This document shows, piece by piece, positions 12,650-60,708 of a stretch of DNA of 64,000 bases (its first letter is position 1; every line of letters starts with the position of its first letter). Position numbers and translations under genes: made by a program. Source of the DNA: Heterodontus francisci (Eukaryota); the NCBI RefSeq assembly GCF_036365525.1, contig NC_090381.1, positions 115,940,644 through 116,004,643 of the forward strand. The letters are read 5' to 3'. The notes under the pieces are model-generated. The model did no database searches, had not been told where the DNA came from, and was given only the letters and a program-made list of their open reading frames with translations.

Positions 12650-13075
12650 TCATAAGAACGTAGGAACAGGGCTATACCAATCGCTCCTTTGAGCCTGTTC
12701 CGCCATTCTTGGATGATCTACACCTTAACTCCATCGACCCGCCTAGGTTCTAGAAGCTGCAATACCCCTGCCTAACAAAATTCTATCAGTATAAGCTGTG
12801 AAATTTTCAGTTGACCTAACCTCACCATCTTTTTAGGGGATAGGGTTCCAGATCTCCACGACCCTTAGAATTTTGACATCACCCCTCAACTGTCTGCCTC
12901 TAATTTTAAAGTTAATCCCCCCCACCCCACCCCGCCCCCCGCTTCATTTTCAAACCATAGGAAACAGTTCTTCTCTACCTACCCTATCAACCCCATTAAT
13001 GATCATAATGACTTCAGTTATATCAGCCCTAAATCTTCAATATTCAGTACGATACAACGCCAATCTATGAAACCT
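12650..13075 (-). mobile_element. Old CR1 3' remnant (also about 34540..34965)
   Basis: cataagaacgtaggaacagg tail and decayed CR1 C-terminal sequence. Confidence 0.6.
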
Positions 13076-14344
13076 CTCCTCAACTTATCATTTTAATCGA
13101 TGCAAAGGGTAACTATTTAAACCCCTATATTTCTAATATGTATAATGAATTTGATAGCAAAACAACATAAAATGATGTGAATGGTAATGATATCAAAAAA
13201 GGTAAGGCATCATAGGTTATGATAATGGACTAGTACTCCAGAACCTTTGTTCAATAATCTGGGTAATTTGTGTTCAAATCAAGCCATAGTAATTTGATCT
13301 GAAATATTTTTTTAAACTGCAAATAAATGCTAGTATCAGTAAAGACTGACCCTCAACCTGACAGATTGTCATAAAAATTCAACTGGTTCAGTAGTGTCCT
13401 TTCAGAAAGAGATTCTGACATCCTTGCATGGTCTAGCCTAGATGTGACTCCTATACGGCACCAATTTGGTTGACTTTTAACTGCCCTCTCAAGAAGCCTA
13501 GCAAGCCACTGAGATGCATCAGACTGCTACCAGGAGTGCAAAACGAAGGTCCAGCATGACAATCGCAGGGTGCCAAAGAATGGGCAATAAATGCTGGTGT
13601 TGTCAGTGATGACTATATCTATATCCTGAGAAGGAATGGGGGGGTGGGGTAGGGGGTGGGGGGGGGGGGGGTCTCAATACCTGATCAGCATAATATCGGA
13701 CCAATATTGTTTTATTGCAAAAGTTCAGCATTACAATACAATTTGATTGTAATTTCAAAGCATTATTTTAATGTTTTGTGCTATGCTGGTATTTACAATT
13801 TATTCAACCATTCATGGGGTACAATATTACATCATTAGAAGTTAGAATGAATCACTGTTCTGAACTCCACTGCCATTGTTCTACAATATATGATGTACAT
13901 TTATTAATAAAACATGATCCTGTCCCCTTTTTGATTAATTTCAACCTCATCAGCCTATATGCTAATCGCATCCCTCAAACCCTTCTAATTCCACAGAAAT
14001 ATCTGCTTGCCAGCTGGACCTATTTATACTTGCTGCTCCACTGTACTTCTGGTAACTTATTCATGAAGTTCATTATCCATTGATTCAAAAGTTGAGCATG
14101 ACTTTCTTTCTTACACTTAACTTCTTAATATTTAAATTATATTGGTACGGGTATGCTAATGTCGTCATTATGCTACTGAATTAATAATCCACATAATATA
14201 TGTTCAAATATGTTCAGTTCTGAGTATTGAGCTCAATATATATAAATGTCATCTAGGAATAAAACCTGGCACCGGGGGAAGTGATTGCGAAGTTGTTGGA
14301 TTGCCGATACTGGTTCACGAATGTTCATTAGGAAAGGAACTCTG

Positions 14345-20923: not shown

Positions 20924-23900
20924 CTGTACAGAAAGAAAGGTACAAATAATAGTTCAAGTGCCCATTTTTACATTTTTTTTAAATTGACGAAAGCTGCTGA
21001 CATGGTAAGTCCAAAATATCACGTGCTGTTAAATATTCCCTCGTACGTGTTTACTGCTGAATTATTGGCGACAGTGCTCATTCTTGCCTACCTGTTTGGT
21101 TACTGATCTCCCCATCAGCGCATGGGAAACAATCAAAGCAGCAAACAGGCTGGCCCTTACGGACGGCTCTTCTTGTACCTGCAAAACAACTATCACTACA
21201 CGTTGAGACAGGAACCTGTGGAGACAAAGGGCTAGATTTTAACCTCCTCAGAACCCATCCACTTGTCTAGAGTAAAAGCCCGGCCCTCTCAGGAAGTCTT
21301 ATTAAAATTTATCGTGTAGTGAAATCGTAACTCGTTGATTCATTGATAAATGTACCTTTGCTATTTGAGAACATTTCGTCACTTCTTTCTACTTGTGTAA
21401 CTTGATTGCATTTCAATATAAGTCGGTTTGCCAAATGTAACTAAGACGCAAACTATTTGACCTCTGATATTTTGCACATCAACAGCATATTGCTAACTAG
21501 GAACCCAGATTTTAAAACACCTTCATCGCGATCAATGGAAGTTCAGCATAAATGAGTTGCGGAACATACACTTAACAGGAGAACAGGACTTGTGTGTAAC
21601 CCGTCCAATAAAACATACAACGGAGACACACAGTATTTCGGGGGCTAACGTCATTCATTGTCAGTTATTTCATAACAATCAACGGGAATAAGAAAATGAT
21701 ATGCATAGTGTCAAAGTTGTTACTAAATTGTCACCATACATATTGCAGAGCAAGTGATTAATCGAATTCTTTGGCTAAATTCTCAATGTTCATCAAGTTA
21801 ATGTTAATTACCAAAAATAGGAAAGCGGAAGATAAGGAAAGGCCATTGAAGCTCAATCATCTAGCGCATTAACTCTCCTACTGTGGAATCGATGTGTAAT
21901 TTTGAATGTGCAGGCTTGGAGGGCCGAATGGCCTGTTGCTGTGCTGTACTGTTCTTTGTTCTTTGTTCTTGATCCTGATGATTTGGCCTCCCGTATATTG
22001 CCTTGTCAATTAAACCAAATATTCCTTATTTTTGGTTAAATAAGTCTTCCTGTTTCAGATTTGCATTTCAGTAAATTCCATTAATCCCCTCCGACCCTAC
22101 TTTCCTGGTGCACTTTGACCTAAACATTGTAGTTTACCTTACCGTGCTATTCATTTTTGTTATGTCTTCACCAGCCCCTTACTTTCGATAAACATAACAA
22201 ATGATAGATGAATATAAATTGGATAGCTATCTGCAATTATTGTAATTGTTAAACCAGATTCCACTTGGATATTGATCATTCATATATTTCGAGAATTTGT
22301 TCTTAAAATGTGAATGAACTGGTAAGACATCCTTGTTTACGTCAGAACATTAAAAGCCAACCTGACAGCATGGGAATGGAGTTATGTGTCGGTCTCAAGA
22401 GAGTAAGCAAGGAGATTCCCCTCCCTGAAAGTGATGAATGATCCTGTTTGAATTTTTACAACAATCCAGCAACTGTTCTCCTGCTGTCATCCCACCAATT
22501 GAATTCAGTTTCATAACTTGTCATGGAGAAGGATTTGAACACATCACCACTGGGTTAGTGGTCCAAAGCCAAAACGACTGCACTGTCGTGCCCTCTTTTT
22601 GATGTGAAATGAAATGGCAGGTTTACACATAGGGGTAATATTGTTTATTTGAATATCCATCAAATCAATGAAACCCTGATGATAATCAAAACGTGAAATG
22701 GTCAAAACAGTATAGAATAGACATTAAAACAGAGATAAAAACAAGAAATGCTGGAACCACTCAGCAGGTCTGGCAACATCTGTGAAAAGAGAGCAGAGTT
22801 AACGTTTCGGGTCAGTGACCCTTCTTCGGAACTGACAAATATTAGAAAAGTCACAGGTTATAAGAAAGTGAGGTGGGGGTGGGGCAAGAGATAACAAAGG
22901 AGGTCTAGATTGGACCAGGCCACATAGCTGCCCAAAAGGTCACGGAGCAAAGTCAAACAATATGTTAATGGTGTGTTGAAAGACAAAGCATTAGTACAGA
23001 TTAGGTGTTAATACACTGAATATTGAACAGCAGCAAGTGCAAACCTGAAAAAAACAGTGGGTTAGCAAACTGAACAAACGAAGATGAATGAACTAAATGC
23101 AAAAAAAAGTTGTAAAAAATGTAAAATAAGAATGTAAAAAAAAAGGAAGAAAAAAATAAACTAAAAATGAAACTAAAATGGGGGGCTGTCATGCTCTGAA
23201 ATTATTGAACTCAATGTTCAGTCCGGCAGGCTGTAGTGTGCCTAATCGGTAGATGAGATGCTATTCCTCGAGCTTGCGTTGATGTTCACTGGAACATAAA
23301 GGAACAGCATCTCATCTACCGATTAGGCACACTACAGCCTGCCGGACTGAACATTGAGCTCAATAATTTCAGAGCATGACAGCCCCCCATTTTACTTTCA
23401 TTTTTAGTTATTTTTTTCTTCCTTTTTCTTTTACATTCTTATTTTACATTTTTTACAACTTTTTTTTGCAATTAGTTAATTCATCTTCGTTTGTTCAGTT
23501 TGCTTACCCACTGTTTTTTTTTTCAGGTTTGCACTTGCTGCTGTTGAATATTCAGTGTATTAACAGCTAATCTGTACTAATGGTTTGTCTTTCAACACAT
23601 CATTAACATATTGTTTGCCTTTGCTCCGTGATCTTTTGGTCAGCTATGTGGCCTGGTCCAATCTCGACCTCCTTTTTTATCTCTTGCCCCACCCCCACCT
23701 CACTTGCTTATAATCTGTGACTTTTCTAATATTTGTCAGTTCCGAAGAAGGGTCACTGACCCGAAACGTTAACTCTGCTTCTCTTTCCACAGATGCTGCC
23801 AGACCTGCTGAGTGATTCCAGCATGTCTTGTTTTTATTTCAGATTTCCATCATCCGCAGTATTTTGCTTTTATTTTAGATGGACCATGGTCTTTGTGCTT

Positions 23901-34400: not shown

Positions 34401-34977
34401 GTGAAGCTCCACAGGACCAAAAATAAACAAATTTAGAGCTAGATATTCGACTTCACTGACTGAATCTTAATCATGCCCTTTATAGAATCAGCAAAAGTTC
34501 CATTCCACACTGAAAGATTGAGAGAGGACTGATTGAAATCATAAGAACGTAGGAACAGGGCTATACCAATCGCTCCTTTGAGCCTGTTCCGCCATTCTTG
34601 GATGATCTACACCTTAACTCCATCGACCCGCCTAGGTTCTAGAAGCTGCAATACCCCTGCCTAACAAAATTCTATCAGTATAAGCTGTGAAATTTTCAGT
34701 TGACCTAACCTCACCATCTTTTTAGGGGATAGGGTTCCAGATCTCCACGACCCTTAGCATTTTGACATCACCCCTCAACTGTCTGCCTCTAATTTTAAAG
34801 TTAATCCCCCCCACCCCACCCCGCCCCCCGCTTCATTTTCAAACCATAGGAAACAGTTCTTCTCTACCTACCCTATCAACCCCATTAATGATCATAATGA
34901 CTTCAGTTATATCAGCCCTAAATCTTCAATATTCAGTACGATACAACGCCAATCTATGAAACCTCTCACACAACTTA

Positions 34978-35081
34978 AATAAAAGCAAAATACTGCGGAT
35001 GCTGGAAATCTGAAACAAAAACAAGAAATGCTGGATTCACTCAGCAGGTCTGGCAGCATCTGTGGAAAGAGAAGCAGAGTT
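34978..35081 (-). mobile_element. 104-nt Penelope terminal fragment private to copy B, with ~20-nt imperfect target duplication
   Basis: Empty site in A at 13068..13087. Flanks are tgaaacctctcacacaactta (34957..34977) and tgaaacctctcctcaactta (35082..35101). Confidence 0.88.
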
Positions 35082-38000
35082 TGAAACCTCTCCTCAACTT
35101 ATCATTTTAATCGATGCAAAGGGTAACTATTTAAACCCCTATATTTCTAATATGTATAATGACTTTGATAGCAAAACAACATAAAATGATGTGAATGGTA
35201 ATGTTATCAAAAAAGGTAAGGCATCATAGGTTATGATAATGGACTAGTACTCCAGAACCTTTGTTCAATAATCTGGGTAATTTGTGTTCAAATCAAGCCA
35301 TAGTAATTTGATCTGAAATATTTTTTTAAACTGCAAATAAATGCTAGTATCAGTAAAGACTGACCCTCAACCTGACAGATTATCATAAAAATCCAACTGG
35401 TTCAGTAGTGTCCTTTCAGAAAGAGATTCTGACATCCTTGCATGGTCTAGCCTAGATGTGACTCCTATACGGCACCAATTTGGTTGACTTTTAACTGCCC
35501 TCTCAAGAAGCCTAGCAAGCCACTGAGATGCATCAGACTGCTACCAAGAGTGCAAAAAGAAGGTCCAGCATGACAATCGCAGGGTGCCAAAGAATGGGCA
35601 ATAAATGCTGGTGTTGTCAGTGATAACTATATCTACATCCTGAGAAGGAATGGGGGGTGGGGTAGGGGGTGGGGGGGGGAGGGGGGGGTCTCAATACCTG
35701 ATCAGCATAATATCGGACCAATATTGTTTTATTGCAAAAGTTCAGCATTACAATACAATTTGATTGTAATTTCAAAGCATTATTTTAATGTTTTGCGCCG
35801 TGCTGGTATTCACAATTTATTCAACCATTCATGGGGTACAATATTACATCATTAGAAGTTAGAATGAATCACTGTTCTGAACTCCACTGCCATTGTTCTA
35901 CAATATATGATGTACATTTATTAATAAAACATGATCCTGTCCCCTTTTTGATTAATTTCAACCTCATCAGCCTATATGCTAATCGCATCCCTCAAACCCT
36001 TCTAATTCCACAGAAATATCTGCTTGCCAGCTGGACCTATTTATACTTGCTGCTCCACTGTACTTCTGGTAACTTGTTCATTAAGTTCATTATCCATTGA
36101 TTCAAAAGTTGGGCATGACTTTCTTTCTTACACTTAACTTCTTAATATTTAAATTATATTGGTACGGGTATGCTAATGTCGTCATTATGCTACTGAATTA
36201 ATAATCCACATAATATATGTTCAAATATGTTCAGTTTTGAGTATTGAGCTCAATATATATAAATGTCATCTAGGAATAAAACCTGGCACCGGGGGAAGTG
36301 ATTGCGAAGTTGTTGGATTGCCGATACTGGTTCACGAATGTTCATTAGGAAAGGAACTCTGCATTTGTACACCTTTGATAGCCACCGGATGTCAAAAACG
36401 CTTTACAGCCAATGAAGTACTTTTGAAGTGTAGTCACTGTTGCAAGATAGGGAAACGCAGCAGCTAATTTGCAGACAGCAAGTGACCATAAACAGCAATG
36501 GGATAAAGGTCAACTAATCTTTTTTTTAGTGGAGTTGGTTGAGGCTATTAGCAAGGAAAGCAGGAGAACGCTCCTGTTCTTCTTCCAATAGTGTGATCTG
36601 GTCCTCATTGCTCACCAGTGTGGGCAGATAGGATCTAGGTTTCCACCTGCGTCCCAAAATTCTTCCAGTCGATATGTCATTGCCATCGAACCATGTTTCA
36701 GGATTGATTTTTTGATTTTTGATTTAGAGATACAGCACTGAAACAGGCCCTTCGGCCCACCGAGTCTGTGCCGACCATTAACCACCCATTTATACTAATC
36801 CTACACTAATCCCATATTCCTACCACATCCTCACCTGTCTCTATATTCCCCTACCACCTACCTATACTAGTGACAATTTATAATGGCCAATTTACCTATC
36901 AACCTGCAAGTCTTTTGGCTGTAGGAGGAAACCGGAGCACCCGGAGGAAACCCACGCAGACACAGGGAGAACTTGCAAACGCCACACAGGCAGTAAGCGT
37001 ATTATTTTTCAGTGAATGCGTTTGAGAAGTAAAAGTTGGTCAGCAAAACAGTTATTGAACAATGGGAGATCTTCAAACAGGAGATGGGCTCGGGTACAAG
37101 AAGGCACATTGCCATGAAAGGGAAAGGAAGACCATCTGAAGCTATAACTCCCTGGATAACTAAAGAAATAGAGGTTACATAAACAGTGTTTGAGCAGCAA
37201 TTTACAAAGTACAGTTGAGTTACATTATATCGGTGTTCCTTGGGGTTGAAGCCGTGCCGTTCTGTTCCACGTTCCTTCTTCAGTTCGTCTCGTTCACTCG
37301 TCAAGTGGTCTTTGTTGAATTCTACCCTAAGAGTGGTTTAAAGTCCCCAGTTATACATCACAAACAGGAACTTACAGCAGAACTCGTCCAATCGCCCAAG
37401 CTACCCAATCATATTGATGATATGTGCAGGCACAGACGATGCTTGGGCCCTCATCCTTTTTTTCAGTTGAATCACAAGCTTCTATTGGCTCTGGGTTAAT
37501 GGACCACCCTGCAGATCTTGAAACTAAAGGCTTTCCTGGCTGTAATTAAGATGCAAAGCTTTGTCCCCGTCACCATTTTAATTAGAGGAATTAAAGTAAC
37601 CGCAGCCCACCAAAGTTAATAGATTAAATGTAGTCTGCCAAGGACCAGCACTATAAACTGATCCAAGTGGTTGTAGATTGGGCAAAGAAATAAACAGCAT
37701 ACTCGTTAGACTGGGAGAGCCTATTATCAACGGTAACAGTTTAAAATTCCTGGATCCACTGTTCCAGGCCAGGCTGCAATTTTTAATTCTTTCGGATGGG
37801 TTTCCACAAATGCAATTTAAATCCATAGTTCCTTACAACAGACAATGTATATTCTGGGAGTGCTCACATAAACTGGGATAAACTGGGGTCTTAATGTCAT
37901 CCTAAGTGAGCAGAAACGACAAACTGACCTTTCTGATGGCGGGGAGGAGCTGAGCAGCATTTTCCGCTGTACCTTTAAGCTTGAAATGCTTGGAAACACT

Positions 38001-60214: not shown

Positions 60215-60708
60215 ATAATAAAAACAAGAAATGCTGGATATACTCAGCAGATCTGGCAGCATCTTTGGAGAGAGAAGCAGAGTTAACGTTTCAGGTCAGT
60301 GACCTTTCATCAGAACAGGCAGAGGCCGGAAATGTAATAGTTTTTCGGCAAATAAAGCAGGGGTGAGGCAAGAGATAACCAAAGAGGTGTTGATAGGACA
60401 AGGTCACAGAGAATAACTGACCAGAAGGTCATGGAGCAAAGGCAAACGGTATGTTAATGGTGTGCTGAAAGACTAAGCGGTAGTGCAGAGTGGGTGTTAA
60501 TTGACAAAAAAGTAAAACAACCTGGCCCAAAGCACAAACATGACAAAACAAAAGTGGGTAGGCTCATGGTAAAAACGCGAATGATGAAACAAAATGAAAT
60601 AAAATAAACAAATAAAAAATATTAAAAAAGAAAATAGCTGAAAATAAAAGGGGAGGGCACCATGCTCTGAAATTATTGAACTCAATGTTCAGTCCGGCAG
60701 GCTGTAGC
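60215..60708 (-). mobile_element. Penelope-like 3' fragment inserted in an L2 remnant
   Basis: [15 protein letters not shown] plus UTR and hammerhead; L2 sequence resumes on both sides. Confidence 0.8.
60281..60316 (-). ncRNA. Minimal hammerhead ribozyme motif (canonical core)
   Basis: GTT-CTGATGA-A-AGGTC-act-GACCT-GAAAC-GTT-AACT: conserved core, 5-bp stem II, palindromic AACGTT at stem III. Confidence 0.72.

Follow-up and report, generated by a model that had tools for sequence, protein, structure and literature searches.

A short Penelope-like insertion beginning at a predicted hammerhead cut site in Heterodontus francisci, and a family of junctions that may record template RNA ends

A 104-nt Penelope-like insertion in Heterodontus francisci begins exactly at the base that follows a predicted hammerhead cut, and it belongs to a minor class of short insertions with this same boundary. 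The boundaries, target site duplications (TSDs), counts, extra G residues, tandem structures and satellite described below were observed directly. We consider it highly probable that the short copies of this family arise by internal initiation of reverse transcription and run-off at RNA 5′ ends. Rare in vivo cleavage by the ribozyme is, in our judgment, somewhat better supported than its absence for the family as a whole, while the odds that cleavage produced the 5′ end of this particular insertion seem to us about even. The window is the whole 64,000-nt stretch analyzed (contig NC_090381.1, positions 115,940,644 to 116,004,643), in a genome of 6.0 Gb. Throughout, +1 is the base after the predicted cut (23771 in the longer copy of Table 1, 35081 in the insertion) and -1 is the base before it.

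The insertion lies in one of several ~21-kb tandem units, ~98.5% identical, that occupy positions 1 to 53089 of the window and its upstream neighbor (L011 to L013); three are nearly complete and the others partial, and the duplication of this unit appears from the sequence to be recent. (A separate ~10-kb tandem array with a period of ~27 bases, L021 to L022, lies about 80 to 90 kb downstream of the window.) As the sequence-only reading had noted, the insertion is confined to unit B, between imperfect direct repeats of ~20 nt, and unit A has the empty site; the site is also empty in a third unit (L001) that lies immediately upstream of the window, while a fourth, partial unit lacks the region. 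Private changes in 12 kb of flanking sequence (34 in the upstream unit, 69 in A, and 30 in B) identify A as the outgroup and the empty state as ancestral. Over 102 nt, the insertion showed no mismatches to nine rows from eight fetched loci (one taken twice). The insertion is therefore real, very young, and flanked by a TSD.

Its first base is the one that follows GAAAC-GTT in longer copies (GTT^AACT), and its far end is the longer, or tail, 3′ end of the family; both points agree with the sequence-only reading. That reading had also called the boundary ambiguous by 1 nt. This does not hold for the 5′ end, which is unambiguous: the filled site contains exactly three A residues, one of them from the target and two from the element. 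The 1-nt ambiguity sits instead at the 3′ end. Since the insertion is young, the change of two bases to three in the 3′-side repeat more likely arose during integration than later. Weakly, a start at the cut site suggests more than coincidence.

Table 1. Positions of the insertion, related features of the window, and satellite arrays
Feature	Position	Strand	Basis or remark
104-nt insertion, pLTR segment from +1 (predicted hammerhead cut) to +104 (longer 3′ end)	34978..35081	-	Comparison with empty sites and young copies
Optional ~35-nt tail between the two 3′ ends of the family, which are likely two RT initiation sites	34978..35013	-	Bimodal 3′ ends; PMC11167929, sections cited
TSD, 5′-side copy, 20 nt	35082..35101	-	Same as empty site; blunt at +1, no microhomology
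TSD, 3′-side copy, 21 nt	34957..34977	-	Three bases in place of two
Empty site, duplicated unit A (outgroup unit)	13068..13087	-	
Longer Penelope-like copy with ORF end, pLTR, hammerhead and tail; coordinate reference	23332..23881	+	
Reference minimal type I hammerhead, in the longer copy	23738..23774	+	Motif geometry
Older subfamily copy, canonical CUGAUGA core, shorter 3′ end	60217..60707	-	
Satellite arrays	L126, C3:214.28-214.30 Mb; L127-L141, C4:0.4-5.2 Mb; L286, C29:0.34 Mb; L285, C39:6.27 Mb		

The assignment to a Penelope-like pLTR end, made earlier from the letters alone, was borne out by several features of the family. Locus L259 carries an open stretch of 477 aa upstream of the same pLTR, with matches to RVT_1 (E 8e-5) and then GIY-YIG (E 8e-4) that are weak and fall below the Pfam curated cut-offs; their order is that of the RT and C-terminal endonuclease domains of EN+ Penelope-like elements, and the longer copy in the window shares its ORF end with L259. 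The repeat also appears to resemble the Penelope ends of sharks and rays. Across 486 copies the 3′ ends are bimodal, at about +60 to +70 and +100 to +109, which corresponds to the optional 3′ tail of 30 to 40 nt in EN+ elements, and inverted insertions bear this tail on one arm. In an anole element, the tail is the stretch between two internal RT initiation sites (PMC11167929, sections cited here). Frequent 5′ truncation and inverted 5′-adjacent copies, likewise typical of EN+ elements, were evident in an unselected set of 126 copies from 1.63 Mb of fetched DNA, with search targets and local duplicates left out: of 118 scorable copies, 39 were inverted and the other 79, used for 5′ ends, were mostly short. 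Palindromic twin-arm insertions within one TSD, with the tail on a single arm and the arms joined at stem II or stem I, were seen at L143 to L152, at L025 to L053, and in the window at 22726-23846; they are compatible with priming from both target strands at two initiation sites.

The pLTR contains a motif whose geometry fits the minimal type I hammerhead outlined in the cited sections of PMC4209133, as the sequence-only reading had proposed, with a 4-bp helix I, a helix II of 5 to 6 bp, a GAAA box, an ACGT palindrome and a GUU triplet (NUH). In the reference copy, stem I pairs 23738-41 with 23771-74 (-33 to -30 with +1 to +4) and is accompanied by the core, a 6-bp stem II and a palindromic helix III, and the predicted cut falls between 23770 and 23771 (GUU^AACU). 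The Rfam hammerhead had no match in the window at E ≤ 1. Free folding of monomer and dimer returned alternative hairpins and not the hammerhead fold, a result that is uninformative for a motif that forms no helix III as a monomer. A canonical CUGANGA core is present in 13 of 16 copies of an ATTTC-marked subfamily, while all 30 of 30 copies of the insertion's own subfamily have the noncanonical core CCGAAGA in its place. Both the CCGAAGA core and the GUU triplet are expected to cut poorly. Splice-acceptor-like sequences occur on the plus strand just before stem I (window 23720-23737) and inside the 3′ segment (23840 region).

Genome-wide, 5′ ends do not peak at GTT/AACT, where the sequence-only reading would have placed them. 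Among the 79 unselected noninverted copies, 18 begin at -35 to -30, ten of these at -33/-32, compared with 2 at +1, both of them old copies of 84% identity, and 3 that begin beyond +1 in the downstream direction; where a TSD was clear (12 copies), 5 begin at -33 to -31 and none at +1. A genome pattern that barred the element's own upstream sequence returned 14,704 matches, and in a by-eye tally of the first 100, 45 began at -33/-32 (43 independent). The plot of 5′ boundaries proposed at the outset thus yielded ends that are not evenly spread, with the main peak 33/32 nt upstream and an excess at +1 that is small and one-sided. Since the ends peak at -33/-32 and not at the cut site, uncleaved RNA is the main template. 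Extrapolation places the start-site class at ~45 to 50 thousand copies, after correction for the pattern pass rate (0.36, assuming random flanks), the exact-match rate (18/68) and inversions (7/10 clean).

The base before the start-site boundary is G in 25 of 43 rows at -33/-32, compared with 4 of 25 at -34, -30 and -29 (p = 0.0009). We considered two other sources for this extra G and rejected both: a spliced short first exon, because the G precedes both -33 and -32 with no longer shared leader, and terminal C addition by the RT, because neighboring boundaries show no G enrichment (4/25). The sequence context at -33/-32 presumably matches the vertebrate Initiator consensus. For L1, an extra G distinguishes capped, full-length insertions (PMC11702581, sections cited), and the -33/-32 peak together with the extra G suggests by the same reasoning that a capped transcript likely starts at the base that opens hammerhead stem I, 23738 (-33) in the reference copy.

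A cut-site class exists, is 30 to 200 times rarer than the start-site class, and shows an excess of at most ~2-fold. We estimate its size at about 250 to 1,400 copies; the two search intervals gave discordant values (about 1,400 versus 280). The unit B insertion is not an isolated event, as the class includes nine TSD-flanked insertions that begin at +1 (the unit B insertion, L040, L178, L196, L217, L250, L275, L341, and L347) and two multi-pass loci taken up below; L178 carries the same 102 nt as the unit B insertion, identical, within a perfect 14-nt TSD. For the interval from +1 to +7, we examined the first 100 of 323 matches, excluding 40 rows as inverted, 26 as deletions or variants, 2 as tandem, 4 as interrupted and 1 as SINE-tailed. 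Within this sample, 10 of 27 clean ends fell at +1 against 19% expected (p = 0.022), or 9 of 26 without the unit B insertion (p = 0.045), placing +1 ~2.5-fold above +2 to +7. For the interval from -8 to +1, 96 of the first 100 of 161 matches were examined, after which rows that were satellite, inverted, variant or interrupted were removed, together with 4 that had SINE tails. Here there was no excess of +1 over -8 to -1, and the 3 of 23 clean ends at +1 are in line with a uniform spread. Counts restricted to TSD-bearing ends were flat (3/10 and 2/7 at +1 in the two intervals), and inverted insertions in the +1 to +7 interval did not favor +1 (7/40). An earlier pattern for the upstream interval drew ~4/5 of its rows from a dispersed repeat family and was replaced by a redesigned one; that family has captured an inverted pair of Penelope 3′ ends mid-element (L084 to L113, about 1,100 of 1,417 pattern matches).

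These counts bear on the possibility that the ribozyme was uninvolved and that cDNA from uncleaved RNA, prematurely truncated at its 5′ end in the ordinary way, stopped at +1 by chance. We regard this as a serious contender, though with less than an even chance of being correct. Every position from -8 to +7 has clean ends, with broadly comparable frequencies, +1 does not rise above -8 to -1, most cDNAs read past the cut site, and the unit B case was chosen because of its coincidence. Chance truncation sits less easily with the 2.5-fold excess over +2 to +7, with +1 stops that recur within single events (L318 and L320), and with the blunt junction of the unit B insertion, given that truncated junctions in the Penelope-like family often carry 1 to 3 nt of microhomology. 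That most cDNAs read through the cut site follows from the inversion junctions, which fall at stem II far more often than at stem I (54 loci at stem II, 8 at stem I and 1 elsewhere, among the first 100 of 1,405 matches), and agrees with the anole result. Inversion junctions track microhomology, and those at stem I were set aside as evidence of cleavage because stem II outnumbers them 54 to 8.

It is improbable that local sequence made the +1 boundary, with stem I complementarity or the GTTAAC/AAC repeats steering strand transfer, deletion or later insertion. Raw matches to +1 do consist mostly of inversions at stem I, of small deletions and of SINE insertions into the TT/AA site. A pattern placed directly at +1 gave 468 matches; of the first 30 loci, 1 was clean and TSD-flanked and most were inversions or small deletions, and among 20 further rows chosen as likely clean, 4 were clean and 2 had a TSD. 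SINE tails adjoining +1 and interrupted copies create false boundaries, which were taken out of the counts. In the unit B insertion, in contrast, target DNA adjoins +1 directly, a TSD and an empty ancestral site are present, and the element contributes neither inverted nor upstream sequence. A SINE with a (CTAAA)n-like tail was found repeatedly at or adjoining the GTT/AAC site of Penelope copies (L224, L232, L236, L237, L279, and L075).

The sequence-only reading had further raised a ribozyme-defined family of mini-retroposons mobilized in trans, and such a self-propagating family now seems very improbable. There are several cut-site copies, one of them (L178) identical over 102 nt, and nonautonomous Penelope derivatives are known (PMC8557442, sections cited). 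Against this, the cut-site copies carry the markers of several autonomous subfamilies and both 3′ ends, have unrelated flanks with no shared junction, and lack position -33 and with it the likely start site; they show neither the master nor the start site of their own that would define a nonautonomous SINE-like family, and they are 30 to 200 times rarer than the start-site class. We give almost no credence to an old insertion deleted from the other units between its repeats or to an assembly error at the filled site, for although the two flanking repeats differ and no contig among the matches listed spans the filled junction, the insertion is identical to young copies, B's sister unit and the outgroup unit are both empty, and, as a weak further point, the end of a contig from run X1 falls at 34967, the final base common to filled and empty alleles.

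Tandem insertions, recovered by searching for the +50 to +61 region joined directly to a new unit, provide a second view of where templates end. Near the start site, 24 rows from 17 independent loci included 14 restarts at -33 and 1 at -32, and at all 15 of these the junction contains a G supplied by neither side; for 14 of these 15 loci, the end of the other pass likewise lies at -34 to -30. The remaining two loci were one restart at -36 and one array at -27. These structures suggest that the RT likely runs off the RNA end and re-initiates near +62. Dimers of this start-site type, with an extra G where the restart meets the opening base of stem I, are found at L323 to L337 and L340; L324 has its first 8 bases stuttered, and L334 is an 87-nt array of 8 units. 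Near the cut, 6 rows represented five loci (L317, L318, L320, L321, and L322). At L318, the passes end at +1, at +1 (or -1, with one T shared) and at +3, inside a TSD, and at L320 they end at +1 and +1, with no extra G at either locus. Restarts at -7 in both L317 and L322 were not repeated by the other pass, and L321 was discarded as a TSD coincidence. L318 and L320 behave as if the template physically ended at +1, and these two loci are the best evidence of cleavage.

A segment of the pLTR has also been amplified as a satellite. Its 68-bp monomer runs from +1 to the first 3′ end of the pLTR, without the hammerhead, and since TT is common to both sides of the junction, the satellite boundary lies at -2 to +1. 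The junction had 17,087 exact matches, amounting to at least 1.1 Mb, on C3, C4, C29, C39 and C505, mostly near contig ends; units are 93 to 97% identical, and arrays span all 7 loci tested. One hammerhead-bearing unit heads the C3 array (L339:~8490). The satellite likely had a single origin, and it may have arisen by a 2-nt jump without cleavage.

We propose a model in which the cap, start site, RT jumping and cleavage are all read from the structures of insertions. Transcription would begin at the first base of stem I (-33/-32), giving a capped RNA, and the element's RT would start internally, 60 to 105 nt downstream of the cut site, and run off whatever RNA 5′ end exists. Capped, uncleaved RNA would yield the abundant inserts of ~100/135 nt with an extra G, and cleaved RNA the minor class of 68/104-nt inserts without the ribozyme. 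The unit B insertion, a member of the minor class, would result from target-primed reverse transcription from the tail site (+104), with run-off at +1 of hammerhead-cleaved RNA. Sometimes the RT may jump from the run-off end to about +62 and repeat, producing tandem units.

The idea that a 3′ cleavage product was itself reverse transcribed and integrated, advanced in the sequence-only reading, survives in part. Cleavage in the origin of the unit B insertion is favored by the excess of +1 over +2 to +7, the nine TSD-flanked cases, the repeated +1 stops, the satellite monomer and the RT initiation known from the anole element. It is disfavored by the lack of an excess over -8 to -1, the flat TSD-only counts, the discordance between the two estimates of class size, the inverted insertions (no preference for +1, and junctions at stem II far more often than at stem I), a core and triplet expected to cut poorly, the small number of multi-pass loci (two), the TT shared at the satellite junction and the probable origin of the satellite in one event, and the anole findings on ribozyme mutants and RNA-seq reads given below. 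The fullest version of the model is more tentative, and we hold it a little below even: that the junctions record both RNA 5′ ends in the germ line, the capped start and the cleaved end, that the telomerase-related RT re-initiates in a telomerase-like cycle, and that such a cycle on cleaved RNA seeded the megabase-scale 68-bp satellite.

The closest comparison is with the Poseidon element PAc of Anolis carolinensis (Frangieh et al. 2024, PMC11167929), which, in the sections cited here, likewise has a pLTR hammerhead, two internal RT sites that bracket a tail and a predominance of uncleaved RNA, the resemblance being one of pLTR layout only. There, RT initiation takes place some 85 nt or further downstream of the hammerhead cut, the ribozyme cleaves only in the presence of protein, and ribozyme mutants insert normally. 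No RNA ends were found at the PAc cut in vivo, with no RNA-seq reads beginning or ending there, and those sections report none of the run-off classes, cap-like G, re-initiation tandems or cut-site insertions described here. With the minimal type I hammerheads of metazoan Penelope elements (Cervera and De la Pena 2014, PMC4209133), the motif shares, as far as the sections cited describe them, a 4-bp helix I, a palindromic helix III, a longer helix II with an unpaired 5′ base, an expectation of activity in dimers only and an occurrence mostly as single motifs in truncated copies. Those authors propose cleavage to unit length and circularization, whereas in the present family the extreme 5′ end of the transcript is the likely place of the ribozyme, and CCGAAGA is the core of the young subfamily. 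In D. virilis, the available description places the start 46 nt before an intron whose end is the 5′ end of helix I, a layout that differs from the one here.

Non-LTR retrozymes (bioRxiv 10.64898/2026.07.22.740005) are, in the parts of the preprint cited, similar in being short noncoding Penelope derivatives with arrays near chromosome ends and a proposed single-terminal-repeat origin. Retrozymes are tandem units that each contain a hammerhead, whereas the unit B insertion is a monomer without the motif and the satellite units also lack it; start-site dimers do contain the hammerhead and may offer a route to retrozyme seeds. A 5′ junction that records the template RNA's 5′ end also characterizes the extra-G junctions of L1 (PMC11702581) and the ribozyme-defined 5′ ends of R2 (PMC6765202 and PMC11371274), in the portions cited. 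The RTs of L1 and R2 start at the RNA 3′ end, while the start here is internal and near the 5′ end, hence the run-off mini-insertions. Among the papers listed by literature searches, no title or abstract reports the end classes, the restarts or this satellite; the preprint supplements, with one cartilaginous fish sampled, could hold related families.

Whether Penelope hammerheads cut in vivo, and for what purpose, is the question that these junctions address. Activity of these ribozymes is low in vitro, and the one reconstituted element does not need it (PMC4209133 and PMC11167929, sections cited). With hundreds of thousands of copies in this genome, their junctions can serve as an archive of template RNA ends, and this archive limits cleavage to no more than a few percent of short insertions. 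With a likely start on the first base of the ribozyme, cleavage would decap the transcript. Repeat synthesis by a sister enzyme of telomerase is suggested as a source of tandem seeds and satellites, and the cut-site insertions, if cleavage did produce them, would represent the first footprint left in vivo by a Penelope hammerhead.
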